Below, piece by piece: positions 123-31,779 of a stretch of 31,838 nt of DNA. The notes beneath the pieces were generated by a model. The model saw only the letters and a program-made list of their open reading frames with translations. It ran no database searches and was not told the DNA's origin. The DNA is from an uncultured delta proteobacterium. Lineage in GTDB: Bacteria > Myxococcota_A > Polyangia > Haliangiales > Haliangiaceae. Within the stretch, counting starts at the first letter, position 1. Each line of letters opens with the position of its first letter. Location of the stretch: positions 477,845 to 509,682 of the forward strand of contig CAVXTW010000015.1 of NCBI GenBank assembly GCA_963764695.1. Reading direction: 5' to 3'. The position numbers were made by a program, and so were the translations under genes.

Positions 123-887
123 CTACTCTTTCCGGGGATTGCCGGCGAGCAGCCGGCTACCCGGGTTGCCATCGGGGAACGTCACCTCGGCCGCGCTCGG
201 CCGGATGTAAACGGGAGTACCCGTCCGGGCCACGTTAACGCGCGATCCGGCGAGCGCAAGTCGCGCGACCGAGCGGGCCGTCGGCGTGATGCGCGCGCGA
301 GCGAGTGGCTCGGCGGCGCCGGCCAGGGCTGCACCATGAGACTCGAGCGCGTCGCCGATCAGCACCGCGCGCGAAAGCTGCGCCTCGCGCAGGAGCTCGG
401 CCACCACTGCGGCGAGCTCCGCCGGAACCATGATACGCTCCGCCCCCATCGCGTCGACGCGGTCGCCCTCGACGCGGAAGAAGCCGGCGCAGACCTCGCC
501 GCGGCGGGCATCGAAGGCCGGCACGACCAGCGTGTCGGCCAGCGGTTCGACGGCCGCGGCGTCCAGCGCCAGCGCCGCGAGCGAGGACACCGACCACAGC
601 GGCAGCCCGGTGGCGAAGCACAGCCCCTTGGCGGTGGCCATGCCGATGCGCAGGCCGGTGAAGGAGCCGGGGCCGGCGCCGATCGCGACCGCGGCCAGCT
701 GGGCGAGCTCCACGCCGGCCTCGCCGAGCACGCCGTCGATCAGGGCGATCAGGTCGTCGCTGCGGCTCTCGGCGCGCCCCTCGGCGGAGAGATCCACGCC
801 GGGCCCCAGGAGCGCAACGCTTGCGACCCGGGTCGATGTGTCGATGGCGAGGACCGGAGACACCCCGGGTGTACCGCTCCAATCCAT
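123..887 (-). CDS. tsaB: tRNA threonylcarbamoyladenosine biosynthesis protein TsaB (YeaZ)
   Basis: 254-aa ORF with the YeaZ/TsaB hallmarks AIDTST...SVAL and GPGSFTGLRIG...AKGL; divergent from the next gene. Confidence 0.85.
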   Translation of the reverse strand: MDWSGTPGVSPVLAIDTSTRVASVALLGPGVDLSAEGRAESRSDDLIALIDGVLGEAGVELAQLAAVAIGAGPGSFTGLRIGMATAKGLCFATGLPLWSVSSLAALALDAAAVEPLADTLVVPAFDARRGEVCAGFFRVEGDRVDAMGAERIMVPAELAAVVAELLREAQLSRAVLIGDALESHGAALAGAAEPLARARITPTARSVARLALAGSRVNVARTGTPVYIRPSAAEVTFPDGNPGSRLLAGNPRKE

Positions 888-961
888 GCTGTAGCGCCTC
901 CTACCACGTCTGGTACGCTGGTGAAAGACCCGTGGCCCTGAGCTCGGACGTCAAGAAGGGG

Positions 962-2740
962 ATGAAGCCGGAGGAGCTGGAAGAGCTACTCAACGGCCTC
1001 GAGAAGCTGCTGGAGCGCACGAAGGTGCTCTACGAGCAGTACTTCATGGGCATCCAGAAGATGGCCCCGCTGCAGCTGCACCGCGACGTCGAGCGCAAGG
1101 TGCGCGAGCTGATGCAGCAGCAGATCCGCAACACGGCGCTGCGGTTCCGGTTCACGACGATCAGCCAGAAGTTCGGGTCGTACTCGACCTACTGGAAGCG
1201 GACGCTGCGCGAGATCGAGCAGGGCAAGTACGTGCGCGACCTGGCCCGGGTCAAGCGCAAGGCCGACCAGATGGGCGAGGAGCTGCCCGAGGAGCTGCTG
1301 GTCAAGCTGCCCAAGCTGGTCCAGGACCGGATCCGGCGCGATCGCGAGCGCATGGCCGAGCGCGCGATGCGCGACGCCGAGCACGAGATCCGGGCGCGGG
1401 GCACGTCTGCCGGCGACAGCGGCGCCGACGACAGCCTGGCGCTGCACGAGATCAGCGACGTCGAGGCGCAGAGCCTGTTCAACGAGGGCGACCTGGACCT
1501 GGACAAGGTGTTCGAGGCGCTGACCGAGGCGCCGGCGCCCGAGGGGACGCCGGTTCCGGGCGCGACCCGGGCGGTGCCGGCCGCGGACGAGTCGGATGCC
1601 CGGCGCTCGGTCGACTTGCTGGAGCCGGATACGGAGACGCTGGAGCCGGACGGCGGCGGGGCGCCGGCGATGGATTCGTGGGCGGAGTCGCCGGAGCCGG
1701 ACGAATCGCCGGAGCCGGCCGTGGAGCCGCCGACGCCGGCAGAGTCGATGGTGGCCCAGGGCAAGGGACGCGCGGCCCGCGCCAGGGGTCGAACCGTGAC
1801 GTCGCCGATGGGCAAGGCGATCGCGGCGAGCCGGCCGTCAACCTCGGACGCATCGGATGCGTCGGACGGGTCGGATGCCCAGCCGGTCGCGCCGGTCGCG
1901 GACCCGCCGGTCGCGGACCCGCCGGTCGCGAACCCGCCGGTTGCGGCTCCCCCGGTCGCGGTCCGGTCAACCCCGCCGGTGTTCCGGGTCCCGCTGCCGC
2001 CGGGGGCAAGCCCGCGGCCGAGCGCGACCCCGCCGGAGCCTCCGGCTGCGGTGCCTCTGCCTCCCGTGCTGCCGCGCACCGCGACCGGGCCCCAGACCGC
2101 GCCCGCGCCCGTGCCGCCGCGGACCATGACCGGCCAGACGCCGCCCGTGTCGCCGGGCCCGCCCCCGCCCGTGCCGCCGCGGACCATGACCGGCCAGACG
2201 CCGCCCGTGTCGCCTGGCCCGGCCCCGCCCGTGCCACCGCGGACCATGACCGGCCAGACGCCGCCCGTGCCGCCGCGGACCGTGACCGGCCAGCAGACGC
2301 CGCGCGCCGCCACCGGACAGCCGACGCCGCGGGCCGCGACCGGCCAGCCAGTCCCACCGCGGACCGTGACCGGGCAGCAGACCCCGCCACCCCGCGCCGC
2401 CACCCCGCCGCCTCCGCCACGTGGCGCGACTCCGCCGCCTCCGCCTCGGGCTGCGACCGCGCGCCGGGCCGAGCCGCCTGCGCACCCGGCGCCCGACCTG
2501 CCGCCCGGCATGGACGACCGCGAGTGCCGCGAGCTCTATGCGCGCTACCTCAAGGCGCGCCAGCTTGTCGGCGAGAGCAACGACGACGTGACCTACGAGC
2601 GCCTGGTGAGCTCGCTCAGCAAGCAGGCCAGCGCGATCATGAACCAGCACAGCGCGCGGGGCGTCCAGTTCCACGTCGTGGTGCGCGGCGACAAGGTCGT
2701 GCTCAAGGCCAAGCCGCTCAAGCCGGGCAAGGACGAGTAG
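962..2740 (+). CDS. Pro-rich repeat protein with conserved N- and C-terminal domains (hypothetical)
   Basis: ATG at 962 preceded by AAGGGG. The listed ORF start at 821 adds an unlikely 47-aa leader. The charged helical N-domain (MKPEELEELLNGLEKLL...) and a globular C-domain (ECRELYARYLKARQL...) flank about 300 aa of PPVPPRTMTGQTPPVSPGP-type repeats. Confidence 0.6.
   Translation: MKPEELEELLNGLEKLLERTKVLYEQYFMGIQKMAPLQLHRDVERKVRELMQQQIRNTALRFRFTTISQKFGSYSTYWKRTLREIEQGKYVRDLARVKRKADQMGEELPEELLVKLPKLVQDRIRRDRERMAERAMRDAEHEIRARGTSAGDSGADDSLALHEISDVEAQSLFNEGDLDLDKVFEALTEAPAPEGTPVPGATRAVPAADESDARRSVDLLEPDTETLEPDGGGAPAMDSWAESPEPDESPEPAVEPPTPAESMVAQGKGRAARARGRTVTSPMGKAIAASRPSTSDASDASDGSDAQPVAPVADPPVADPPVANPPVAAPPVAVRSTPPVFRVPLPPGASPRPSATPPEPPAAVPLPPVLPRTATGPQTAPAPVPPRTMTGQTPPVSPGPPPPVPPRTMTGQTPPVSPGPAPPVPPRTMTGQTPPVPPRTVTGQQTPRAATGQPTPRAATGQPVPPRTVTGQQTPPPRAATPPPPPRGATPPPPPRAATARRAEPPAHPAPDLPPGMDDRECRELYARYLKARQLVGESNDDVTYERLVSSLSKQASAIMNQHSARGVQFHVVVRGDKVVLKAKPLKPGKDE
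1895..1965 (+). repeat. 15-bp tandem repeats (gccggtcgcggaccc) encoding PVADP x ~4
   Basis: Direct read of near-identical 15-mers within the CDS. Confidence 0.6.
2101..2290 (+). repeat. 60-bp tandem repeat, ~2.7 copies, in-frame (PPVPPRTMTGQTPPVSPGPA)
   Basis: Rows 2101-2160, 2161-2220 and 2221-2265 are nearly identical at exact 60-nt period; degenerate 'accggccag' repeats continue to ~2400. Confidence 0.8.
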
Positions 2741-2746
2741 GCGCGC

Positions 2747-4075
<1,329 letters not shown>

Positions 4076-4113
4076 ACCAACCCGACCAGGTCTTCGACCA
4101 CGTTCTGTCGGAC

Positions 4114-7100
4114 CTAGTGGGGCTGGGCGCTGCTGCCACTGTCGGCGAAGCGCGTCCGGCCGGTGTGATTCCACCAGTCGAGCCAGCGCTGCCGGGCCTG
4201 CTCGCGCTCGCGGCGCGGCAGATCGTGGTGGTAGCCGAAGTACTCGCCGGTCGCCTTGCGCAGGTCCTCGGCGGCGGAGCGGCGGATCTCGGTGTCCTTG
4301 TGGGCCAGGCCTTCGAGCAGCCACTCGATGCGGTTGCGGGTCCGGTTCTTGTCCCACCAGTGGCGCCACTTGCGATTGCTCGGGCCGAAGTCCTGCTTGG
4401 TCAGGCGCACCAGCGCGCGGCCCGCGATTGTCGCCGCCTCGCCGCCGCCGGCGTGGAGGTCGAGCAGGTCCGGGATCGCGCTGATGTCGGCCAGCTCGCC
4501 CAGCGCGGTCGCCGCGCACTCGATGGTGGTGAGATCGTCGCCGTGCAGCGCGCGTCGCGCGACAGCCAGCGCCGCGGCCAGGTGGGGCTGCGGATACGAC
4601 GCCAGCGCCTCGATCGCGATCGCCCGGGTGCCGCGGTCGGGGTCGAACAGCCGCTCGACCAGCGGCGGCAAGAGCGCCTCGAGCCGCATCTCCGACGCGC
4701 ACAGCGCGGCGTAGTAGCGGACGTCGTTGCCGCTGTCGCGCAGCTTCTCGCTCACCACGTCGGCCGCCGGCGCGCCCATCCGCACCGCGAGCTCGAGCAG
4801 GTGGCCGTGCTGGGCCGCGCGCACGTGGCGGCCGCCGATCTGCCGGCGGTCGAGGATGAGCCGGCCGGGGAAGTGGCGCCGCAGCCACGGCAGCACGTCG
4901 GCCGGCCGGGTGAGTGCCTCCTCCATCGCGCCGGCCGCCGCGGCGTCGTTGGCGCCGTCGACCGCGACCATCAGCGCCTCGACCTCGGGCGGGATCGGAA
5001 TGTCGGCCGCCGCGCTGCCGCTCGCCACCCGCGACTCGCCGGGCCGCGGGATCTCGCCCAGCAGGGTCGGCATCACGTCCGGCGAGACCGCCGCCATGCG
5101 CACTGTCGCGCGGTCGTCGACGCGCTCGGGCGCCTCCGCATCCGCGCGCTGGTCGACCGGCGCGTCCGCGGGCGGCGTCGCGGCCGGCATCTGCCTGCTC
5201 TGCGACATCGCCTTGCCGCGCATGATGATGCGGCCGAGCGCCTCGCTGGCGGTGGCGGCCAGCGGCAGGATCTCCGACGCCTCCGCCACCATCAGCATGT
5301 CGCCGCCGCGATGGCCGATGACCAGCGCCACCACCCGGTTGCGCAGCACCACCGGCAGCAGCAGCGCGCTCGGCGGGATCACGCCGCCCAGCCGCCGGAT
5401 CATCGCGTCGATGTCCTTGTCGCCGGTGGTGACCGGGCCGATGTAGGGCGACGCCGTGTTCACCGCCTGGCGGAACGCCGACGCGGTGTCGAGCGGGATG
5501 AGCACCTGGGCGATGTTGCTCTGCTCCACCTCGTCGCCGGCGATGGCCACGCGGCCGATGGCGGCCCCGCCCTGCACGGTCAAGAGGCCGACGTACCAGG
5601 TGCGCGCGCGGATGGCGCGCAAGAGGATCTGGAAGACCTCGTCGCGATGCTCGGCCGCTCCCAGCATCGCGCGCGCCTCGCTCACGCTGAGCGGCGTCGG
5701 GTCGAAGCCGCCCATGCGGCGGACCGACTGCGTGGTCGCGCCCGAGTCGCCCGCCATCGGCCCGGTCGGCGCCGACGGCAGCGGGGCGACCGGCGGGCCG
5801 CTTGCCTCGTCCTGCGGCCCGATCTCGCCGCTGACCGCGCTCGGACCGCGGCCGTCGTCGAACCGCGCCATCGGCGCGGTGACCGCCAGCCCGCCCGAGT
5901 CGGGGCCGTCGTACTCGATCACCACCTCGGCGGAGCTGCCGGACAGCACCTCGGGCGCGTCGCCCGCCGACCCGTCCGGCACCGTGTCCTCCGGCACCAG
6001 CGGCAGCGGCTCGTCGGTGGTGTGTCGCCTGTATGCCTCGGCCGCCTTCTGATCGACCTCGATCTGTCGCTGGCGCACCGCCTCCGGCGTCATGTCGCGC
6101 GTGCGCCGCCCGCTCGGATGCAGCGGCTGCGCGTCGGCCAGCGCCAGTGCCGCCGGCGTGGGCGCCGTGATGGCCCCGGACGCGTCGAAGGGCGCCGTCA
6201 CCTGTGCCTCGAGCGCCGCCTCGGCCGCGTTCATCGCGACCTGCGGCATGTTCGCCGCGACCGGGGCCGCAGCCGACGCGTCGGCAGCAGCCGCGGCCTC
6301 GGCAGCAGCCGCATCCGCCGCCGCCGCCGCAGCGGCCTCGGCAGCCGCCGCGTCCTCAGCAGCCTGGGCGTCGGCAGCGGCCTGGGCCTGCGCGTTCGCC
6401 CACGCTGCCTCCTGGGCCTCCACAGCAGCCCGCGCCTCGGCAGCCGCCCGGGCCTCTTCTGCAGCCTGCGCCTCCGCAGCCCGCGCCTCTTCCGCAGCCC
6501 GCGCCCCTTCCGCAGCCCGCGCCCCTTCCGCAGCCCGCGCCCCTTCCGCAGCCCGCGCCCCTTCCGCAGCCCGCGCCCCTTCCGCCGCCCGCGCCTCGGC
6601 AGCCGCCCGCGCATCTTCCGCAGCCCCGGCAGCAGTCCGCGCCCCGGCAGGAGCCCTGCCCCCGGCAACCTCAGCGTCCGCAGCCGCCTGCGCAGCGATC
6701 GCGGCCGCGCCCGGCCTGGTCTCCGCCGCCGACGGCGCAGCGGCCCAGCGCGCGGCCGCCGCATCGGCGCCCGGCCTGGTCGCCTCGTCGGTCGGCGCCG
6801 AGGCCGCACGCGCCTCCACATCAGCGACCACCACACCGGGCGACGTGTCCACCCCGGCCAGCGCTGCAGCGAGCGCGCCCGGCCTGGTCTCCTCCGGCGC
6901 CGGCGCCGAGGCGATGCGGGTCGGGGCCGACGCCACCGCCACGGCCGGGTCGAGCCTGGTCGGCTCGGCGGCCGGCGGCTGGGCGAGCGTGCCCACCACC
7001 ACCGACGGCGAGCCGCCGACCGGCGGGATCATCGACGGACGCGACGCCTCGGCCAGGCGCATGAACCGATCGTCGCTGGCCCGCCCGTACACGCGGTCGA

Positions 7101-7530
7101 AGGCCAGCTCGAAGCGAAACTCCGGCGCCACGAACGGCTGCACCGGCGCGCCCAGCTCGCTGGCCAGGTCCTCGAGCAGCCCGAGGTCAACCGGATCGCG
7201 CGCCAGCACCCGCATGGCGTCGCCGTCGAACGACAGCGGCACGACGCGGAAACGCTCGGCCAGCGCGCGCGGACATCGGCTGGCCGCGCGCGGCTCCATC
7301 CCGTCCAGCTCGCGCGCCGTCGCCGGCGGCAGCCCGGTCGCCAGCGACAGGTACTGCAGGAGCCGCTGCTCGGGCAGAAGGTTCATCTCGAGCAGGATGG
7401 TGTCGAGCGCGCCATCGAACAGCACCTGGCGCTGGAACGCCCGCTCCATCCGCCGCACGTCGACCACACCGTCGCGGACCAGCAGCGAGCTCAGGCGCGA
7501 TGTCCCACTCGTCTGGCTCGTCTCGCTCAT
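4114..7530 (-). CDS. multidomain protein: N-terminal MshEN/GspE-N (T2SSE_N) c-di-GMP-binding-type domain, Ala/Glu-rich low-complexity repeats, GAF-like middle region, C-terminal PBS-lyase HEAT repeats
   Basis: 1138-aa uninterrupted ORF. The N-terminal RLSSLLVRDGVVDVRRMERAFQRQ fits the 24-residue MshEN motif RLGxx(L/V/I)(L/V/I)xxG(L/V/I)(L/V/I)xxxx(L/V/I)xxxLxxQ. The central region has (EARAAEGARAA)n and three ETRPGA repeats. The C-terminus has HEAT-like D.D..VR..A..ALG repeats. Confidence 0.75.
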   Translation of the reverse strand: MSETSQTSGTSRLSSLLVRDGVVDVRRMERAFQRQVLFDGALDTILLEMNLLPEQRLLQYLSLATGLPPATARELDGMEPRAASRCPRALAERFRVVPLSFDGDAMRVLARDPVDLGLLEDLASELGAPVQPFVAPEFRFELAFDRVYGRASDDRFMRLAEASRPSMIPPVGGSPSVVVGTLAQPPAAEPTRLDPAVAVASAPTRIASAPAPEETRPGALAAALAGVDTSPGVVVADVEARAASAPTDEATRPGADAAAARWAAAPSAAETRPGAAAIAAQAAADAEVAGGRAPAGARTAAGAAEDARAAAEARAAEGARAAEGARAAEGARAAEGARAAEGARAAEEARAAEAQAAEEARAAAEARAAVEAQEAAWANAQAQAAADAQAAEDAAAAEAAAAAAADAAAAEAAAAADASAAAPVAANMPQVAMNAAEAALEAQVTAPFDASGAITAPTPAALALADAQPLHPSGRRTRDMTPEAVRQRQIEVDQKAAEAYRRHTTDEPLPLVPEDTVPDGSAGDAPEVLSGSSAEVVIEYDGPDSGGLAVTAPMARFDDGRGPSAVSGEIGPQDEASGPPVAPLPSAPTGPMAGDSGATTQSVRRMGGFDPTPLSVSEARAMLGAAEHRDEVFQILLRAIRARTWYVGLLTVQGGAAIGRVAIAGDEVEQSNIAQVLIPLDTASAFRQAVNTASPYIGPVTTGDKDIDAMIRRLGGVIPPSALLLPVVLRNRVVALVIGHRGGDMLMVAEASEILPLAATASEALGRIIMRGKAMSQSRQMPAATPPADAPVDQRADAEAPERVDDRATVRMAAVSPDVMPTLLGEIPRPGESRVASGSAAADIPIPPEVEALMVAVDGANDAAAAGAMEEALTRPADVLPWLRRHFPGRLILDRRQIGGRHVRAAQHGHLLELAVRMGAPAADVVSEKLRDSGNDVRYYAALCASEMRLEALLPPLVERLFDPDRGTRAIAIEALASYPQPHLAAALAVARRALHGDDLTTIECAATALGELADISAIPDLLDLHAGGGEAATIAGRALVRLTKQDFGPSNRKWRHWWDKNRTRNRIEWLLEGLAHKDTEIRRSAAEDLRKATGEYFGYHHDLPRREREQARQRWLDWWNHTGRTRFADSGSSAQPH
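6478..6590 (-). repeat. 18-bp tandem repeat x ~6 (plus-strand unit gcccgcgccccttccgca) encoding AEGARA repeats
   Basis: Direct read; near-perfect copies at 18-nt period inside the giant CDS. Confidence 0.75.
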
Positions 7531-18502: not shown

Positions 18503-19558
18503 GTGACGCTCGAGCTGAGAAGTGTGGTCAAGCGCGTCGGCGCCGAGACCCACATCTACGAGACCAGCGTGGTGTTCGCCGAGGAGGGTTTCAACATCCT
18601 CCTCGGCACCACGCTGTCCGGCAAGACCACGCTGATGCAGCTCATGGCCGGGCTCGAGAAGCCGAGCTCGGGTGAGGTCTGGTTCCGCGGAAAGAACGTG
18701 ACCGGCGTGGCCGTGCAGAAGCGCAACGCCGCCATGGTCTACCAGCAGTTCATCAACTACCCGAACTTCTCGGTGTTCGACAACATCGCGTCGCCGCTGC
18801 GGGTCGCGGGGCTGAAGTCGGCCGAGATCAAGACGCGGGTCCACAAGGTGGCGGAGCTCTTGCGGCTCACGCCGATGCTGAAGCGGCGGCCGGCCGAGCT
18901 GTCGGGCGGGCAGCAGCAGCGCACCGCGCTGGCCCGCGCGCTGGTCAAGGACGCCGACCTGGTCCTGCTCGACGAGCCGCTGGCCAACCTGGATTTCAAG
19001 CTGCGCGAGGAGCTGCGCGACGAGCTGCCCGCGCTGTTCACCAACCGGCGCTGCACGGTCGTGCTGGCCACGTCCGATCCGACCGAGGCGCTGCTGCTGG
19101 GCGGCCACACCGCGGCGCTGCACGAGGGCAACGTCACCCAGTTCGGGCCGACCGCCGAGATCTACCGCAAGCCGGCCAATGTCCTGACCGCGCGCGTCTT
19201 CTCCAACCCGCCCATCAACATGGCGCCGGTGGCGGTCGAGAACGGCAGCGTGGTGCTGAGCGACACCGTGAAGTGGCCGGTCCGCGGCGTCACGCTGGCC
19301 GACGGCAGCTACACCGTCGGCATCCGCCCGCACCACATCAGCCCGATCGCCAACGGCAAGGCCGCGGCGCAGATCGAGGGGCGTGTGCAGATCGCCGAGA
19401 TCAGCGGCTCCGAGAGCGTCATCCACTTCGAGCACGGCGAGCTCAGCTGGGTGTCGCAGTCGCACGGCGTGCACGCCATCGCCGTGGGCGAGACGGCCAA
19501 CTTCTTCATCGACGTCGAGCGCTGCATGTTCTTCGACGGCGACGGAAAGCTGATCTGA
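18503..19558 (+). CDS. ABC transporter ATP-binding protein (MalK/UgpC-like with C-terminal TOBE-like domain)
   Basis: Walker A GTTLSGKTT, Q-loop, signature LSGGQQQR, Walker B LVLLDEPL. Stop overlaps the next start (TGATG). Confidence 0.85.
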   Translation: MTLELRSVVKRVGAETHIYETSVVFAEEGFNILLGTTLSGKTTLMQLMAGLEKPSSGEVWFRGKNVTGVAVQKRNAAMVYQQFINYPNFSVFDNIASPLRVAGLKSAEIKTRVHKVAELLRLTPMLKRRPAELSGGQQQRTALARALVKDADLVLLDEPLANLDFKLREELRDELPALFTNRRCTVVLATSDPTEALLLGGHTAALHEGNVTQFGPTAEIYRKPANVLTARVFSNPPINMAPVAVENGSVVLSDTVKWPVRGVTLADGSYTVGIRPHHISPIANGKAAAQIEGRVQIAEISGSESVIHFEHGELSWVSQSHGVHAIAVGETANFFIDVERCMFFDGDGKLI

Positions 19559-20644
19559 TGGCCCGCATCACGCTCCAGAAGGTGCGGCACAGCTATCACG
19601 CGAAGCCGAAAGACCCGGCCGACTGGGCGCTCAAGGAGCTCGATCTCGAGTGGCGCGACGGCGGCGCGTACGCCCTGCTCGGCCCGTCCGGCTGCGGCAA
19701 GACGACGCTGCTCAACATCATCTCGGGGCTGGTGCGGCCGACCGAGGGGCGGGTGCTGTTCGACGGCGCCGACCTGACCGACGTGCCCACCGACCGGCGC
19801 CACATCGCGCAGGTGTTCCAGTTCCCGGTCGTCTACGACACGATGACCGTGCGCGACAACCTGGCCTTTCCGCTGCGCAACCGCGGCCTGCCCGAGGCGG
19901 ACATCCAGGCCAAGGTGGAGGAGATCGCGCGCATGCTCGATCTCGAGCCGCATGCTGGGCCGGCGCGCCTCGGGGCTGACGGCCGACGGCAAGCAGAAGA
20001 TCTCGCTCGGCCGCGGGCTGGTCCGCTCCGACGTCAACGTCATCATGCTCGACGAGCCGCTGACGGTCATCGACCCGCACCTCAAGTCGCAGCTGCGCTC
20101 CAAGCTGCGCGAGCTGCACCAGCGCATCACGCGCACGATGATCTTCGTGACCCACGACCAGACCGAGGCGCTGACCTTCGCCGACCAGGTGGTGGTCATG
20201 CACGACGGCACCGTGGTGCAGATCGGGTCGCCGGTCGAGCTGTTCGAGAAGCCGCAGCACACCTTCGTGGGTCACTTCATCGGCTCGCCGGGCATGAACG
20301 TGCTGCCGTGCGAGCTCAACGGTGACTCGGCGCTGCTGGCCGGGACCAAGGTCCGCGTGGACAACCCGCCGGCCGGGCCGCTCGACGGCAAGCGCCTCGA
20401 GATCGGCGTGCGCCCGGAGTTCGTGAAGCTGGCGAAGGAGGGCATCCCGGTCCGCATCGTGCGGGTGAGCGATGCCGGCCGCCACCGCATCGTCAACGCG
20501 CGCCACGGCGAGATCGGCATCAAGCTGCTCGTCGACGACGGCGTGCCGGTGCCGAGCGAGGTGGCCCACGTGCAGTTCGACCAGGCGCACACGCGCCTGT
20601 ACGCCGACGGCTGGCTGGTGGAGAAGGACGCCGACCGGGGCTGA
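19558..20644 (+). CDS. second ABC ATP-binding protein (MalK-like) with degenerate signature motif; reading frame broken near 19951-19957
   Basis: N-terminal half in frame 1 (Walker A GPSGCGKTT ... LDLEPH); C-terminal half in frame 2 (GRRASGLTADGKQKISLGRGLV, Walker B VIMLDEPL, H-loop VTHD, TOBE-like tail). Joining them needs one nucleotide removed. The signature reads LTADGKQK instead of LSGGQRQR. Confidence 0.7.
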
Positions 20645-23641: not shown

Positions 23642-24249
23642 TCAGCGGCCGGCGATCGGCTCGGCGCCGAGCTCGCGCATGACCTGGCGGAAGACCGGGA
23701 GCTCCTGCGCGCCCTGCACGGCGAGGCGGCCGTCGAAGATGAAGGTCGGCACGGCGTGGATGCCGAGCTCGTTCGCCTCGCGGACGCTCTCCTCGACGGT
23801 AGCGCGGTAGGTGCCGGCCTCGATCGCGGCCTGCAGCTCGTCCGGGTCGATGCCGACCTCGGCTGCCGCGCCGCGCAGGGTCTCGAGCGCGTACAGGTCC
23901 TGGCCCTCGGTCCAGTAGCGCCGCAGCAGCGACGCGTGCATCGGGTTCAGCTGGCCGTGCACGCGCGCGAGCTCGGCCGCCTCGTGGGCGCGCCGCGTGG
24001 AGGGCACGATCTCGCGGCGCACCATGACCAGGCCCTCGCGCTCGGCCCGCTTCTTCAGCGGATCGTTCGGGTCACTGGCCCGCGCACGCACGTACGCCGG
24101 CAGCGGTCGCCCCTCCGGCGGCGTGTCCGGTCGGAGGAAGAACGGCCGCCAGTCGACGGTGAGGTCATATTCCCGGCCCAGCTTGGCGATCTCGACGAGA
24201 CCGACGTAGCACCAGGGTCAGACGAAGTCGGACCAGATCGCGACGTCCA
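23642..24249 (-). CDS. DsbA/FrnE-like thiol:disulfide oxidoreductase with in-frame TGA (24217-24219) at first Cys of CPWC (candidate selenocysteine) and a 1-nt frame break near 24181-24183
   Basis: Minus-strand ATG at 24249 gives MDVAIWSDFV-TGA-PWCYVGLVEIAK; continuing with one inserted nt gives LGREYDLTVDWRPFFLRPD...IHAVPTFIFDGR, the FrnE/DsbA thioredoxin fold. The ORF track shows only the C-terminal 149 aa (23642-24091). Confidence 0.6.
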
Positions 24250-24324
24250 TGTATGGGGAATATAGAGCTGTGGCCGGGTGCGTCAAGCGAGTGTCCCGGG
24301 TCGCCTGCCCGGTATACTCATCCC

Positions 24325-24936
24325 ATGGCCAGTCTGGCGGAGCTGCGCGAGCGCGACGACGCCCCGACGGGAGATCAGTTCGTTCATCTTCGCGGCGTGT
24401 CGTGGGAGGACTACGAGCGGCTGCTGGAGATGCGTGGCGATCATTCGGCCCCGCGCATCTCGTTTCTGGAGGGAACCGTCGAGATCATGACCCCATCGCG
24501 GGACCATGAAGGCGTCAAGTCCTGGATCGGATGTCTGGTCGAGGTGTACTGCCTCGAGATCGGGGTCGAGTTCAGGACCTACGGATCCTGGACGATCAAG
24601 GAGCGACGCGAGGAGCGCGGCGTGGAGCCGGACGAGTGCTACGTGTTCGGAACCGATCCGGCCGATCGGCCCCACCTGGCCATCGAGGTCATCTGGACCT
24701 CCGGAGGCATGAACAAACTGGAGATCTATCGCCGCCTCGGCGTGCGCGAGGTATGGATCTGGCGTCGCGGCCACATCCAGGTCCACGCGCTACGCAGCGA
24801 CCAGTACGAGGCTCTACCCGCAAGCGAGGTCCTGCCCGGGATCGACCTCGACGAGCTGGCCAGCTATCTGGACCGGCCGACCACCAGCCAGGCCATGCGC
24901 GACTACCGCGCCGCCATCGTGGCCCGGCGCGGCTGA
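24325..24936 (+). CDS. Uma2-family (DUF820) PD-(D/E)XK putative endonuclease
   Basis: Start taken at MASLAELRERDD (ATG 24325). Conserved PHLAIEVIWTSGGMNKLEIYRRLGVREVWIWRRG block typical of Uma2 proteins. Confidence 0.7.
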   Translation: MASLAELRERDDAPTGDQFVHLRGVSWEDYERLLEMRGDHSAPRISFLEGTVEIMTPSRDHEGVKSWIGCLVEVYCLEIGVEFRTYGSWTIKERREERGVEPDECYVFGTDPADRPHLAIEVIWTSGGMNKLEIYRRLGVREVWIWRRGHIQVHALRSDQYEALPASEVLPGIDLDELASYLDRPTTSQAMRDYRAAIVARRG

Positions 24937-24964
24937 GGTTCAGCCGACCCCGTTCCGCGCCGGG

Positions 24965-26446
24965 TCACGAGCACGCCGTGCACTCGGGCGACCGATGCAC
25001 CTGACACGCGGCGCGACCGACGGCGCCGCGGCGCGACCGGGCCGGCAGCGCCATGGCCACGACACCGAGGACCGCGGCGACCACCGAGACGACGACCGCC
25101 GCGTGGAAGCCGTCCAGGATCTGAGCCGGCGACCCGCCCGGAACGGTCCAGGCGCTGTTGACCGCCGTGACGGCGGCCAGCACGAGGGCGCCGCCGACCT
25201 GGAACGATGTCGTCACCAGGCCGCTGGCGAGCCCCTGCTCGTCCGGCGCGATGCCGTTGGTGGCGGCGATGTTGAGCGGCCCGTAGGCCAGCGCGAAGCC
25301 GAGCCCGGCCAGCAGCACCGTCGGCAGGATGACGGGCACGTAGCTCGAGTCCAGGCCGGTGCGGAGGAAGAGCGCGTACGAAGCCACGGTCGAGCTGAGG
25401 CCGATCAAGATGAGCGGCTTGATCCCGAGTCGCTCGACCAGCGGCTCTACCCGCGGAGCGAGGATGGCGACCAGCAGGCCGCCGGGAAAGATGGCCAGCC
25501 CGGTCTCCAGCGCCGACCATCCGCGCAGCTGCTGCATGTACAGCGTCGCGATGAACTGAAAGCCGACGTAAGCCCCGAAGAGCGACATGGCGCCGAGGTT
25601 GGCGCGCACCAGCGAGCTCGAGCGCAGGATGCCCAGCCGCACCAGCGGCGAGTCGGTCCTCGCCTCGTGCCTGACGAAGCCGACCAGGATCGCGGCCGCG
25701 ACGGCGAACGAGCCCAGCGTACGCGCCGATGCCCAGCCGGCCTCCGGCGCCTCGACGACGGTGAAGACCAGCAGCAGCATCGCCGCGGTCAGCGCGACCG
25801 CACCGGCGACATCGAACGCCCGCGAGGAACCGTCGCGCGGCGGATCCGCCGGCACCAGCGCATACCCGGCAAGAAGAATGAAGAGCGCGACCGGCACCGG
25901 CAGGAAGAACACCCAGCGCCAGCTGATGACGGTCAGCACGCCGCCGAAGACAAGACCGAGCGAGAACCCGATCGCACCCGTCGCGGTGTAGACAAGGAGC
26001 GCCCGGTTGCGCGCCGGCCCCTCGGCAAAGCTCGTCGTGATGATCGAGAGCCCGGCCGGCGCCGTGAACGCCGCGCTGATCCCCTTGATGAGCCGCGTCG
26101 CGATGAGCAGCGGCCCTGCGTCGGCCAGCCCACCCAGCGCAGACGCAACCACGAACACGGCAAGCGAGACCAGAAACATCCGTCGCCGGCCCAGAAGATC
26201 CGCAGCCCGACCACCGAGCAGCAAGAACCCGCCGTACCCCAGCACGTACCCGCTCACCACCCACTGCAGCGAGCCATTGGACATGCCGAGATCGGCACCG
26301 ATCGACGGCAGCGCAACACCGATCATCGAAACATCGAGCGCATCGAGAAAGATCGCGCCACAAAGCACGAGCAACATCCCGCGCGCCCGCGCGCTCAGAC
26401 GCTCGACGCCGCTGTGAGGCGCAGGCAAGACATGAGTGGACGACAC
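24965..26446 (-). CDS. MFS transporter, DHA2 (EmrB/QacA-like, 14-TM) drug:H+ antiporter family
   Basis: GTG 26446 preceded by GAGGAG at 7 nt. The listed start 26563 adds a low-complexity leader. TM1 LDALDVSMIGVALPSI and motif GRAADLLGRRRMFL are present. Confidence 0.8.
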   Translation of the reverse strand: MSSTHVLPAPHSGVERLSARARGMLLVLCGAIFLDALDVSMIGVALPSIGADLGMSNGSLQWVVSGYVLGYGGFLLLGGRAADLLGRRRMFLVSLAVFVVASALGGLADAGPLLIATRLIKGISAAFTAPAGLSIITTSFAEGPARNRALLVYTATGAIGFSLGLVFGGVLTVISWRWVFFLPVPVALFILLAGYALVPADPPRDGSSRAFDVAGAVALTAAMLLLVFTVVEAPEAGWASARTLGSFAVAAAILVGFVRHEARTDSPLVRLGILRSSSLVRANLGAMSLFGAYVGFQFIATLYMQQLRGWSALETGLAIFPGGLLVAILAPRVEPLVERLGIKPLILIGLSSTVASYALFLRTGLDSSYVPVILPTVLLAGLGFALAYGPLNIAATNGIAPDEQGLASGLVTTSFQVGGALVLAAVTAVNSAWTVPGGSPAQILDGFHAAVVVSVVAAVLGVVAMALPARSRRGAVGRAACQVHRSPECTACS

Positions 26447-26796
26447 GACTGTTCTCCTCGGTCGGGAATCGTGAAGCAGCGGCCTGACAGCACCGCCGCG
26501 GGGCGGGCCGCTGGCCCGGCGAATCGCCGGACGGGCCCGCGAGACGATTGCTAGAACAGTCATCTAAAGAGCCGCGGACGGACGTCAAACACAGCTCCGC
26601 CCCGCGAGCACCCGAACAGCCCGGCAAGTGCCCATCATCAATCGGCCGAGGGCCTCGGATCGCGACCCGGGATCTGCCGGCGATGATGCCTCGCGCGCGA
26701 TCGGCCTCCGGCGTGCCGGTCCGCAACATCGCGATTACAGACTCCGTCCGGACAGGTTGTCGAGGTCGTCGGCCTCGAGGAAGCCGTGAACGGCCG

Positions 26797-28333
26797 CTAC
26801 TCGATCTCCATCACCATGGTCCCCGACGAAAGCGCCTCGCCGACTAGCCGTGTGAGCTCGGCCAGGATCTGGTCGGCGGTTGGCACCGTGCATCCCTCGG
26901 ACGGGTCAACACGTTCGAAGGAGGGCGCTCTGGAAGGCGCCACCCGCCGAAGCAGTTCCAAAAACTTCGGAGTCACTGGAATGGTCTCCACGAGATGCGA
27001 AGCATCCCGGAATCCGCCTTCCACGGCGTCAACGAATGGCAGCCGCTCCCCGCCATCGCTCATGTCCGAGAGAGCCTCGAGGATCCATCGCCAGTAGACA
27101 TCCGAGAGGACAAGCTCCGACTGGTGCGAACGGAACCGCGCAAATCCCTGGATCGGCCGGCTGACAAGGAACCGGGTGCGGTCCGAGGGATTGTTCGCAG
27201 TCACCGCAACTCCGTTCGTCAGAAAGGTGTTACTTGGGGGCCCGCGCCGGCCATCACCAGGGCGGGCACGTCGCTCGCAGGGATCGGTCGGGCAGTCAAC
27301 GTAGTCGTCGGGGAGCGGGGAGACAGGCTGGCCCTGATCCCCATTCTCGAGGCCCTTGGTGCCCTCGTACTGGTTGCCGAAGACGGTCAGCCCGGCCGAT
27401 GGTTCGTCGTCATAGAGGATGTTGGGGTCGTTCACTCCGGCGAAGGCGTTGTTCTCGACGACTGCGCGCGCCTCGACGCCGGCCCCGATGCAGTAGTTGT
27501 TGCCGGCGGCGGTGTAGTAGTTGTTGAGCAGGTGCACGTAGCCGAAGCGCATGCGGGGCATGCGCTCGACGACGCCGTCGGCCCACCAGTTGTGGTGGAA
27601 CGTGACCCGCAACCGGCCCTGGTCCTCCGCCTGGTTGTCGTCGTCGTGACCGATGAGATTGGAGAAGCGGTGATCGGCTGGCGCCGCGTCGGTGTAGTGG
27701 AACAGGCTCGACGAGATCGTCACGTTGTCGGAGCCGTGCGTGACGTCGAGATTGCCGTCGGGGGCGTCGAACACATCGACGTGGTCGATCCAGATGTGGT
27801 GGGCAAAGAAGATCTGGATCCCATCCTCGATGTCGGTCGTGGTGCCGTCAACGTGCAGGTTGCGGATGATGACGTTCGAGATGCGCTCGGTGAGGCTCTC
27901 GCCGTGGATGCGGATCCCGCCGCGGATCCCGGAATCCGGCCCCACACCGACGATCGTCTTGTTCGACGCCACGTCCAGCGCCGGCGTGTCGAGCATGCCG
28001 TCGAACGTGAATGACGCGCGGCTCGGGGTCCTCGGCCAGCGCCAGAAGCTCCTCGGCCGTGGTCACGGTGATGGGAGGCTCTTCTCCGCCCCCGGTCGTG
28101 GTCGGCACGCCGTCGCCGGCGACTGCAGCCCAGCCGCACAGACCTTCGGCGGGCGGGACGACCGGTGCACCGTCGGACAGATCGCCATCTCCGCCGCCAC
28201 CGCCGTCGGCGCCCGGCTGCCCGGCGGCGTCCATCCCCTCCCCGCCCGACTCGGAGTCGCTACAGGCCGACAGCGAGGCCGCGGCCAGCAACGCAATCGC
28301 AGCCGCTGGCAGGAAGCAGGCTCGAGTCCACAT
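26797..28333 (-). CDS. pectate lyase (PL1) lipoprotein with C-terminal extension; reading frame broken near 28001-28006
   Basis: N-terminal lipoprotein signal (MWTRACFLPAAAIALLAAASLSAC) and ...TVTTAEELLALAEDPEPRVIHV in one frame; DGMLDTPALDVASNKTIVGVG, NVIIRNL, WIDH, HNWW, RMPRMRFGYVHLLNNYY in the other (ORF 26797-27996). Removing one t in gtt restores ...RVIHVDGMLD... Confidence 0.7.
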
Positions 28334-28502
28334 ACCTTGACGGAGGCCGCGCCGCCCAGATCCGGGTCAGATCGGTCGTGGCGCCAACCCGCCGAACGGG
28401 CTCGGCAGGGGCTGGAGTCGCGGCCCCCCAGACGGCGAGCAGACATGTCAGCCAACCCGGCCCGCGTCGCCCTCCTGGCCATCGTTCGGGCTGGTCGCGC
28501 CC

Positions 28503-29952
28503 TTGCATCGCCACGGGCCGATGCAGCCTCCGGTGGCACTGTCCCGAAGCTCGGCCTTCTCCTGTCGCTGGCGGGTCAAGGACCGGCTGGTCGCGTCGCT
28601 CGAGCCCTTCATCGGCGATGTCGCCCGGCGCGTGGCCGGACGGGAAGGCCTGCGCGACGCGGTGGTGGCGGCGGCGAGCGCGGCGCCCGACCTGGCTCGC
28701 CACTTCGACTTCAATCCGTCGCGCCCGGCCGGCGACTTCGACTTTGGCTTGAAGCCTTCGATCCTGCACCGGGAGGACGATGCGGTCAACGACATGACCT
28801 TCTGGGCCGGCGACCGCGATGTCCGCCTGCATCTCGAGATGTCGGACAACTGCCTGCGGCCCATCGCCGACCTTGTCGAGCGGTCTGCCCGCGCATCGTT
28901 CTCTGCCGACCAGCTGCGAGCGGACCTGCCCGACGACCTGCACACGCTGTTCGACGAGCTGCTCGACTGCGGCTTTCTGTCGGAGGCGGCGGAATCGACC
29001 GCGACGCGCCCCCGCTGGAACGCGGCCGCGCCCGGCATCACTCGCCTGCAGCACGCGTCGCTTCTTTACAGGACGGGCACGACCTCGGTGCTCGTCAATC
29101 CCCACTTCCATTCCGGGCTCGGGGGCGCGGCCACGTCGAACCATCGACCTGGCCGACCTCGGTCGCGTCAACGCCATCGTCATCTCGCACGGCCACGCCG
29201 ACCACTGGTACCTGCCCACCTTGATGCTGTTCCCGCGCGATACGCCGATCATCGTCCCGGAGGCCCCGGGCTCGACGATCCTGTGCGACGACTTCGTCGC
29301 CGTGCTGCGCGGCCTGGGCTTCCGCCACATCGTCCCGCTGGCGTGGTACGCGCCGCCCCATGTCGTCGGTGACCTCGAGATCCACGCGCTGCCGTTCTAC
29401 GGCGAGCAGCCGCTCCTGACCGAGCAGCCGCGCGACCCGGCCCTGCGCAACTGGGGCAACACATACGTCGTCCGCAGCGACGGCTTCACGTCCTGGTTCC
29501 TCATCGACGCCGGCCAGGACGCCTCCGGCAGCATGGCCGACGTCGCGCAGCACGTCCGCTCGCAGTTCGGCCCGATCGACTTCCTGCTCAGCAACCTGCG
29601 CCCCTTCTGCGCGTCCACGCCGTTCTACATCACCAGCGGCCACTACTGGCTATCACTGACGGCCGACCAGATGCAGCGCTTCCCCTCGATGCGAGACCAC
29701 TGCATCACCCTGTCACCGCCCGGAGTCGCCGAGGTCTGCCGCATCACCCAGGCTCGCCACTTCCTGCCCTACGCCCACTGGTGGTCTGCCCTCGGCGCCC
29801 GCATCGAGCGCGAGGATCGCCTCCTCACCTGGCTATCCGACGAGCTGGCCCGAAACCGAGCCGGCACGCGCATCCTCGACTGGACCGTCGGCGACCAGCT
29901 TCACGTCCGCAGCGCAGGGTCCGCGGATGTCCGCCCTCCAGACCGGGCTTGA
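28503..29952 (+). CDS. metallo-beta-lactamase-fold hydrolase with ~200-aa unrecognised N-terminal domain; reading frame broken near 29115-29140
   Basis: Frame 0 ORF (28503-) gives the N-domain through ...LLYRTGTTSVLVNPHFHSG; frame 1 ORF continues RTIDLADLGRVNAIVISHGHADHWYLP (HxHxDH). Start uncertain: TTG 28503 or ATG 28521. A GGGGG run at 29121-29125 is a likely indel site. Confidence 0.65.
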
Positions 29953-31095: not shown

Positions 31096-31117
31096 CATGT
31101 CAAAAATCTTTAACACG
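31096..31117. promoter_or_regulatory. related palindrome CATGTCAAA-AATC-TTTAACACG (box 2)
   Basis: Same ATGTCAAA-N4-TTTgACA architecture 46 bp downstream of box 1, immediately upstream of the GGAGAA RBS/GTG 31137. Confidence 0.5.
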
Positions 31118-31136
31118 CAGCATCGGAGAACGATCC

Positions 31137-31559
31137 GTGGCATTCCAGGAAAAGTCGGCGTGGATCATGTCCCTCGCCCTGCTCGTGGGCGGCGTCTTCT
31201 ACTTCGGCGTCGTGGCCCTGATGTCGTCGGCGATCGGCAGGCTGGCGCCCCCGATCCTGCCGGTCGTCGCCGTGTACACCGGCATTCTGGTCCTCATCGC
31301 GATCGTCGGCCACATCGTCGCCGCGGTCCTCGCGCCTCGCGATGCCGGCGCGCCGGTCGATGAGCGCGACCGCGCAGTCACCACGCGAGCCGGCCACCGC
31401 TCCGGCTACGTCTTCGGCGCCGGCGCGATCCTGTCGCTCGGGTTCTACCTCTTCAGCTACGACGGAAACGTCCTCTTCTACGGCGTCTTCGCCAGCCTCA
31501 TGATCAGCCAGCTGGTCGAGTACGGCACGCAGATCTATCTCTACCGGACGACCGTGTAG
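31137..31559 (+). CDS. small multi-TM membrane protein (partner of XRE regulator; DUF2975/YoaS-like)
   Basis: GTG after GGAGAA at 6 nt; product has 3-4 hydrophobic helices. Confidence 0.6.
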   Translation: MAFQEKSAWIMSLALLVGGVFYFGVVALMSSAIGRLAPPILPVVAVYTGILVLIAIVGHIVAAVLAPRDAGAPVDERDRAVTTRAGHRSGYVFGAGAILSLGFYLFSYDGNVLFYGVFASLMISQLVEYGTQIYLYRTTV

Positions 31560-31563
31560 GGCG

Positions 31564-31779
31564 ATGGCTCGCCGGCTGCCGATCGCCAACCGCGTGCGCG
31601 AGCTCCGCGAGCGACATGGAAGCATGACGCAAGCAGAGCTGGGCGAGGCCATCGGGGTCACGCGCCAGACGATCATCGCCATCGAACAGCGGCGATACTC
31701 GCCCTCGCTGGAGAGCGCCTTCCGCATCGCCCGCGTGTTCGACCTGGGCGTGGACGACGTGTTCACCTGGGACGAATGA
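31564..31779 (+). CDS. XRE-family helix-turn-helix transcriptional regulator (YozG-like)
   Basis: MTQAELGEAIGVTRQTIIAIEQRRYSPSLESAFRIARVF is a classic Cro/C1 HTH; starts 5 nt after the membrane-protein stop. Confidence 0.8.
   Translation: MARRLPIANRVRELRERHGSMTQAELGEAIGVTRQTIIAIEQRRYSPSLESAFRIARVFDLGVDDVFTWDE

Follow-up and report, generated by a model that had tools for sequence, protein, structure and literature searches.

The window analysed here is a stretch of 31,838 nucleotides (positions 477,845 to 509,682 of contig CAVXTW010000015.1, assembly GCA_963764695.1) from an uncultured delta proteobacterium of the Haliangiaceae, and on its minus strand lies a gene for a thioredoxin-fold oxidoreductase of the FrnE/DsbA type in which an in-frame UGA takes the place of the codon for the first active-site cysteine. 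The gene starts at an ATG (24250-24248), carries the UGA as codon 11 and ends at an ordinary TGA (23644-23642). Its minus-strand translation begins MDVAIWSDFV-TGA-PWCYVGLVEIAK..., and the full frame (24250..23642), MDVAIWSDFV*PWCYVGLVEIAKLGREYDLTVDWRPFFLRPDTPPEG...ELGAEPIAGR*, has one internal stop only; the protein ends at residue 202 and its sole cysteine is Cys14. An initial annotation, made from the letters of the window alone, had proposed a candidate selenoprotein. The alternation of selenocysteine (Sec) and cysteine at this position among homologs, the conservation of the UGA, a downstream hairpin resembling a bacterial selenocysteine insertion sequence (bSECIS), and the standard genetic code of the window all agree with that proposal: on comparative sequence evidence, this is very probably a genuine Sec-encoding gene.

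Some details of the initial annotation required correction. It placed the start at 24249 and the TGA at 24217-24219; each is off by one, the correct positions being 24250 and 24218-24220. It also described a one-nucleotide frame break about 35 nt downstream of the UGA. There is none: the frame of 202 codons is continuous, and alignment to a full-length Cys homolog (P0004) extends over 200 residues without a gap (68% identity). The apparent break arose because the start coordinate was off by one. That the listing of open reading frames (ORFs) shows only the C-terminal 149 residues (23642-24091) was correctly observed; judged on the structural model of P0004, such a product would be without strand 1, the CxxC helix and strand 2.

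Features of the selenoprotein locus, with positions in the window and the basis of each assignment.
Feature	Position	Strand	Basis and remarks
Complete coding sequence of the probable FrnE/DsbA-like selenoprotein	23642..24250	-	202 codons; single continuous frame; PF01323 match; gapless alignment to P0004
In-frame UGA, very probably read as selenocysteine	24218..24220	-	First (nucleophilic) Cys position of the CPWC redox motif
Redox motif U-P-W-C (Sec11, Cys14)	24209..24220	-	Translation; P0004 model
bSECIS-like hairpin core, CGGUCUC-GUC-GAGAUCG	24187..24203	-	7 bp stem, triloop GUC; minimum free energy and centroid folds, comparative counts
Extended SECIS region, with a lower helix of 3 bp (GCU/AGC) around the core	24181..24210	-	97.6% paired; one-sided changes only
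Sigma-70-like promoter, TTGACG-16 nt-TATATT (predicted function)	24259..24286	-	10/12 match; 0.0 sites expected in shuffles
Mechanical 149-residue ORF	23642..24091	-	Stop-to-stop or gene-caller reading; annotation artefact, not a real product

With Cys written for the stop, residues 3-190 match the Pfam family DSBA (PF01323; E=5.8e-33, 114.7 bits against a cut-off of 25.6). The top sequence relative of solved structure is FrnE of Deinococcus radiodurans (drFrnE; E=7e-27). In alignment the stop coincides with the first Cys of the drFrnE CPWC motif, and likewise with that of the Cys homologs, which confirms the original observation that the TGA falls exactly on the first active-site cysteine. 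No NCBIfam model covers the gene: the sole hit (NF041057) is to an unrelated family of (seleno)lipoproteins, at 37 bits against a cut-off of 190. The fold was modelled for the Cys homolog P0004 (AlphaFold/AF2; predicted local distance difference test score, pLDDT, 95.7). In this model residue 11 immediately precedes a helix (12-27), which is the canonical position of the CxxC motif in the thioredoxin fold. The model superposes best on drFrnE (template modelling score, TM, 0.84; 32% identity) and also on Streptomyces SCO1869, whereas its similarity to periplasmic DsbAs is much weaker (TM 0.54-0.65). Judged by eye, the window protein begins directly at strand 1 (M-D-V-A-I-W) and thus has no signal peptide.

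Homologous DNA was drawn from contigs of one genome per species (44 loci), from metagenome contigs (36 loci) and, by exact-protein look-up, from two further places; the 75 sites with a readable motif, from Myxococcota genomes and soil metagenomes, were used for codon counts. The codon at the Sec position is TGA at 49 of these sites, TGC at 15 and TGT at 11, with no case of TAA or TAG, and so the aligned column holds either Cys or UGA. A TGA on the catalytic codon had been thought too precise for coincidence, and its recurrence at 49 of 75 loci, in 46 distinct Sec-form sequences of 99 nt, bears this out. The TGA is found in metagenome-assembled genomes (MAGs) near the window – a "delta proteobacterium" MAG (90% protein identity) and a Kofleriaceae MAG (87%) – and in many soil contigs, and is kept down to homologs of 43% identity (L076, on a 421 kb contig). 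It is present also in cultured strains: Archangium gephyra (two genomes, one of them complete), A. violaceum Cb vi76 and A. lansingense, and further in Vitiosangium, Pyxidicoccus fallax, P. caerfyrddinensis and Myxococcus sp. RHSTA-1-4. Cys forms occur in the M. xanthus group, the Corallococcus/M. qinghaiensis group, Citreicoccus and Chloroflexi. On a neighbour-joining tree the Sec forms are spread over at least five clades.

The codons upstream of the UGA (W-S-D-F-V) are conserved as protein among the 46 distinct Sec-form sequences. Synonymous variation is evident (TCC 36, TCG 8, TCT 1; GAC 40, GAT 6; GTC 20, GTT 23) and replacements are few (7 of 230, all conservative); that the variation is mostly synonymous indicates that both sides of the UGA are translated in one frame.

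Sec and Cys forms meet within a single named species. A. violaceum CP137851 (L045/L046, codon 3043-3045) has TGC where A. violaceum Cb vi76 (L012) has TGA, and the downstream hairpins of the two are identical: the switch must therefore be very recent. The intact hairpin of CP137851 is consistent with a change from Sec to Cys, as far as the two sequences can indicate direction. The 'C' in the A. violaceum database protein P0007 was considered as a possible U-to-C conversion by the database, and this was rejected: the DNA has TGC. Another database protein, P0052 (MVNVRVWSDFVWPWCYVG...), has Trp in place of Sec, which presumably reflects gene calling under a code that reads TGA as Trp.

Downstream of the UGA the transcript is predicted to form a short hairpin, whose stem begins 14 nt, and whose loop begins 21 nt, past the UGA. 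It is encoded by the codons for V-G-L-V-E-I plus the first base of the next codon. Across Sec forms the stem is 7-8 bp long and the loop is GUC, GUG or GGC; the first base of the loop is G in 46 of 46 distinct Sec-form sequences, and GU opens it in 44. The hairpin is intact in all 38 distinct Sec-form sequences that were folded and is lost in most Cys forms. Among 28 distinct sequences of 48 nt, 97.4% of stem cells are paired, against 31-52% when the register is slid. Support for the lower helix that extends the core is weaker. In L076, the homolog of 43% identity, a different stem (GGCCA/UGGCC, with the loop GGUCG) occupies the same position.

Both the pairing and the codons bear marks of constraint. 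At pair 21-31, 20 sequences have U-A and eight have C-G, with no intermediates or mismatches; the compensatory change from U-A to C-G joins a synonymous substitution (Gly, GGU to GGC) with a replacement (Ile to Val, AUC to GUC). Among Sec forms, synonymous sites are frozen inside the stem only: Leu+7, which lies within it, is CTC in 43 of 45, whereas Leu+13, outside it, is CTG in 34 of 45; and Glu+9, within the stem, is GAG in all 45, whereas Glu+16, outside, is GAA in 20 and GAG in 21. The peptide G-L-V-E-I/V is near invariant in Sec forms, while Cys forms vary (GLQEV, GYAEV, GLSEV and others). Taken as a pattern in sequence, these are the footprints that would be expected of a bacterial SECIS embedded in a coding sequence.

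A number of observations weigh against this interpretation, and against Sec insertion more generally. Folding of the region 3' of the UGA, which the initial annotation had proposed as a check, returns the hairpin in both the minimum free energy and the centroid structures, but the hairpin region of the window folds no better than shuffled sequences (z=+0.26). In a genome of 70% GC the lack of any gain over shuffles means that folding of a single sequence is uninformative, and the structural case rests on the comparative data. Those data have weaknesses of their own: the covariation derives from few independent events (probably three or four); the stem overlaps the conserved G-L-V-E-I/V peptide, so part of the conservation is at the level of protein; and some Cys forms (L037, L044, L045) keep the hairpin too. 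A search of the window against Rfam gave no hit. The SECIS of Escherichia coli fdhF has a spacer of 11 nt and a bulged U, and the window hairpin is unlike it, with a spacer of 14 nt, a perfect stem of 7-8 bp, a loop of 3 nt and no bulged U. Lastly, no selA, selB, selD or tRNA-Sec gene was found in the 31.8 kb window or the retrieved flanks, the only DNA in which they were sought: the Pfam annotation of some 24 window ORFs contains no SelA, SelB or SelD domain, there is no match to tRNA-Sec or to Rfam families in the window, and no tRNA of any kind was found in 48 related loci.

The homologs bear directly on the fallback offered by the initial annotation, namely decay into a pseudogene, or an error of sequencing: a Cys-type FrnE gene would have suffered a change from TGC or TGT to TGA, or a base would have been miscalled in a long-read assembly. 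From TGC the change is of a single base, the window derives from a metagenome assembly (the 764 kb contig_1386 of ENA ERZ25039516), and a MalK-like ATPase gene some 4 kb away looks frameshifted near 19950. The selenoprotein gene, however, has neither a frameshift nor a second stop; the very same TGA recurs at 49 independent loci drawn from separate projects, complete genomes of cultured strains among them; purifying selection persists on both sides of it; and the hairpin with its frozen synonymous sites is specific to TGA forms. These data effectively refute decay and error, which we consider extremely improbable.

A different possibility is that translation does pass the UGA but inserts Trp, Gly or Cys there, throughout the genome or locally, whether because the code is altered or by way of a suppressor tRNA or near-cognate read-through. 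The Trp of the database entry P0052 is the evidence in its favour. Against it, TGA is the stop of 14 of the 18 Pfam-supported genes in the window, this gene included, which marks the code as standard and the recoding as local. The UGA, moreover, is confined to the catalytic Cys of the CxxC motif, where it alternates with Cys codons only, and a dedicated, conserved hairpin lies at the distance of a SECIS. Relatives in the phylum are, in addition, documented Sec users: a survey of 5200 genomes, in which the Sec trait was defined by SelA, SelB and SelD, lists Haliangium ochraceum, Plesiocystis pacifica, Myxococcus spp., Corallococcus coralloides, Cystobacter fuscus, Stigmatella aurantiaca and Anaeromyxobacter as Sec-utilising (PMC5029168, Table S2), from which it follows that the trait is common in the phylum. 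Decoding as an amino acid other than Sec is thus very unlikely. A scan of the window for genes interrupted by in-frame stops returned three sites, all of them boundaries between adjacent genes; it missed the known Sec UGA and is therefore a weak negative for further interrupted genes.

The third alternative concerns the start of the protein. If the UGA were a true stop, it would end a peptide of 10 residues and the functional product would begin downstream, at a GTG (24091) in the window or at the Val codon at +8 in relatives. Public gene calls appear to favor this: the proteins are truncated at the N-terminus in 90 of the 120 nearest clusters, of which 60 start at the Val codon eight codons past the UGA (beginning V/M-E-I-E-K) and 30 further in. 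In the window, however, the codon eight past the UGA is GTC, which is no start codon, and the first in-frame start yields the 149-residue product, with its loss of strand 1, the CxxC helix and strand 2; even those products that begin at the Val codon are without the entire redox motif. Nor would the 10 upstream codons and P-W-C stay conserved if they were untranslated or useless.

A conserved promoter-like site also argues against a downstream start. It ends 8 nt upstream of the ATG at 24250, and its -35 element (CTTGACG) recurs with unchanged spacing to the start codon in seven related loci (L047, L001, L002, L048, L049, L050 and L053). Its proximity to the ATG suggests a leaderless transcript and supports the start at 24250; to judge from this spacing, the mRNA is probably leaderless or near-leaderless. 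Termination at the UGA is accordingly extremely improbable.

The neighbors of the gene in the window encode a Zn-dependent alcohol dehydrogenase, a Uma2 nuclease and a transporter of the major facilitator superfamily (MFS). Neighbors differ among lineages: there is no conserved operon, and the context provides no clue to function. The ORF of the Uma2-family nuclease (24253-24936, plus strand) has a mechanical ATG at 24253, 3 nt from the divergent ATG of the selenoprotein gene and overlapping the promoter-like site; the Met near 24322 (MASLAELRE...) is the likelier true start of this ORF. In the closest genome (L001, 90% protein identity; 2122-5201) the gene lies between those for a pectate lyase and an MFS transporter, whereas in the window (23642-27996) the MFS and Uma2 genes sit between the pectate lyase gene and the selenoprotein gene, a difference in order that points to local rearrangement or insertion.

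Elsewhere in the window, the MalK-like ATPase mentioned above, the second of this ATP-binding cassette (ABC) type (19273-20644, plus strand), is seemingly frameshifted near 19950, with ABC_tran (profile 1-96 of 137) in the frame of ORF 19273-20325 and OB_MalK in that of 19847-20644. Either the gene has truly decayed into a pseudogene or the assembly contains an erroneous indel; frame errors, then, do occur in the contig, though not in the selenoprotein gene. Pfam (E 1e-5 or 1e-4) gave no match for a 639-residue ORF (821-2740, plus strand), a 218-residue ORF (31110-31766, minus strand) or the overlapping ORFs 27725-29224 (plus strand) and 28260-29330 (minus strand), and found only an MshEN domain in a protein of 1138 residues (4114-7530, minus strand).

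If the gene is expressed as a selenoprotein, the following course may be envisaged. Translation would begin at the ATG at 24250, probably on a leaderless mRNA, and at codon 11 the elongation factor SelB would bring Sec-tRNA(Sec) to the UGA; SelB would itself be recruited by the hairpin CGGUCUC-GUC-GAGAUCG lying 14 nt downstream within the coding sequence. After insertion of Sec, translation would run to the ordinary TGA at 23644-23642. In the finished protein the selenol (or selenolate) of Sec11 would attack substrate disulfides or oxidised thiols, and Cys14 would resolve the mixed selenenyl-sulfide: in effect the way in which FrnE and thioredoxin work, but with a first residue that is more nucleophilic. 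We infer that the product, a member of the FrnE branch of the DsbA family, acts in the cytoplasm as a thiol-disulfide oxidoreductase dependent on Sec, and a role as reductase or isomerase is the one that its relatives suggest.

The gene is a clean and well-supported case of a hidden selenoprotein, in that standard gene finding gives a stump of 149 residues and cuts three quarters of the nearest relatives likewise. The signature UGA-N14-CGGYCUC-GUS-GAGRUCG could serve to re-annotate the clade. Several switches between Sec and Cys are seen, one of them inside a named species. More tentatively, the Sec form may be both predominant and ancestral in the FrnE clade of aerobic soil Myxococcota, hidden by gene callers, with Sec and Cys having switched repeatedly and recently; this broader view we hold as a possibility somewhat short of probable. 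Were it true, A. violaceum would offer a natural, culturable Sec/Cys pair with which to test the benefit of selenium to a cytoplasmic disulfide reductase.

Comparison with known systems places the protein more closely. Periplasmic DsbA of the E. coli type (CPHC) is alike in its thioredoxin fold, into which a helical domain is inserted, and in a CxxC-type motif placed where helix 1 begins; the window protein differs in having no N-terminal extension, a UPWC motif and only weak similarity of fold. No dsbB-like gene was found among its neighbors in the window, and a role as periplasmic oxidant is not expected.

The likeness to drFrnE (DR_0659; PDB 5CNW, 5CO3, 5CP1), a stress-induced cytoplasmic disulfide reductase/isomerase (PMC8945050), is closer: both have a motif of the CP(W/F)C form and neither has a signal peptide. 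The window protein, in contrast, has Sec for the first Cys, is about 50 residues shorter and is without the C-terminal CxxxxC tail that has been proposed to regenerate the active site of drFrnE (PMC8945050). FrnE of S. roseofulvus and of D. maricopensis also is without this tail (PMC8945050), which is thus not strictly defining for the FrnE subfamily; in its absence, recycling of the window protein must use another reductant.

In its recoding the locus resembles E. coli fdhF, with its SECIS and SelB: in both, an in-frame UGA is followed by a short hairpin within the coding sequence, the apical loop starts with G-U, and the hairpin constrains the choice of codons together with the peptide that it overlaps.

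The nearest precedent is the family of DsbA-like selenoproteins described by Zhang, Gladyshev and co-workers. The "DsbA-like protein" (COG2761, motif UXXC) was first described in 2005 as a selenoprotein family in sequences from the Sargasso Sea (PMC1088965) and reported in 2006 from Anaeromyxobacter dehalogenans, Desulfovibrio desulfuricans and Desulfotomaculum reducens (PMC1794560); by 2016 it comprised 45 genes in 41 organisms, making it the tenth most widespread selenoprotein family of bacteria (PMC5029168, Table S3), and a review of 2026 carries the entry "DsbA-like protein form 1, PF01323, UxxC" (PMC13188914). The window gene agrees with this family in domain (PF01323/COG2761), in a UxxC motif with Sec first, in widespread Cys homologs, and in a small stem-loop downstream of the UGA with G in the apical loop; since it has all the sequence-level hallmarks of the family, it belongs to it. 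The family has been known for two decades, and from another myxobacterium among others: the window presents neither a new mechanism nor a new family. The clade of the window gene is distinguished by its origin, which lies in Myxococcota of soil that are largely aerobic (Kofleriaceae-like MAGs, Archangium, Pyxidicoccus, Vitiosangium). The DsbA-like/FrnE selenoproteins are thereby extended into common aerobic soil myxobacteria, cultured genera included, and the modest novelty lies in how widely the Sec form occurs in these organisms, together with the poor state of its annotation.

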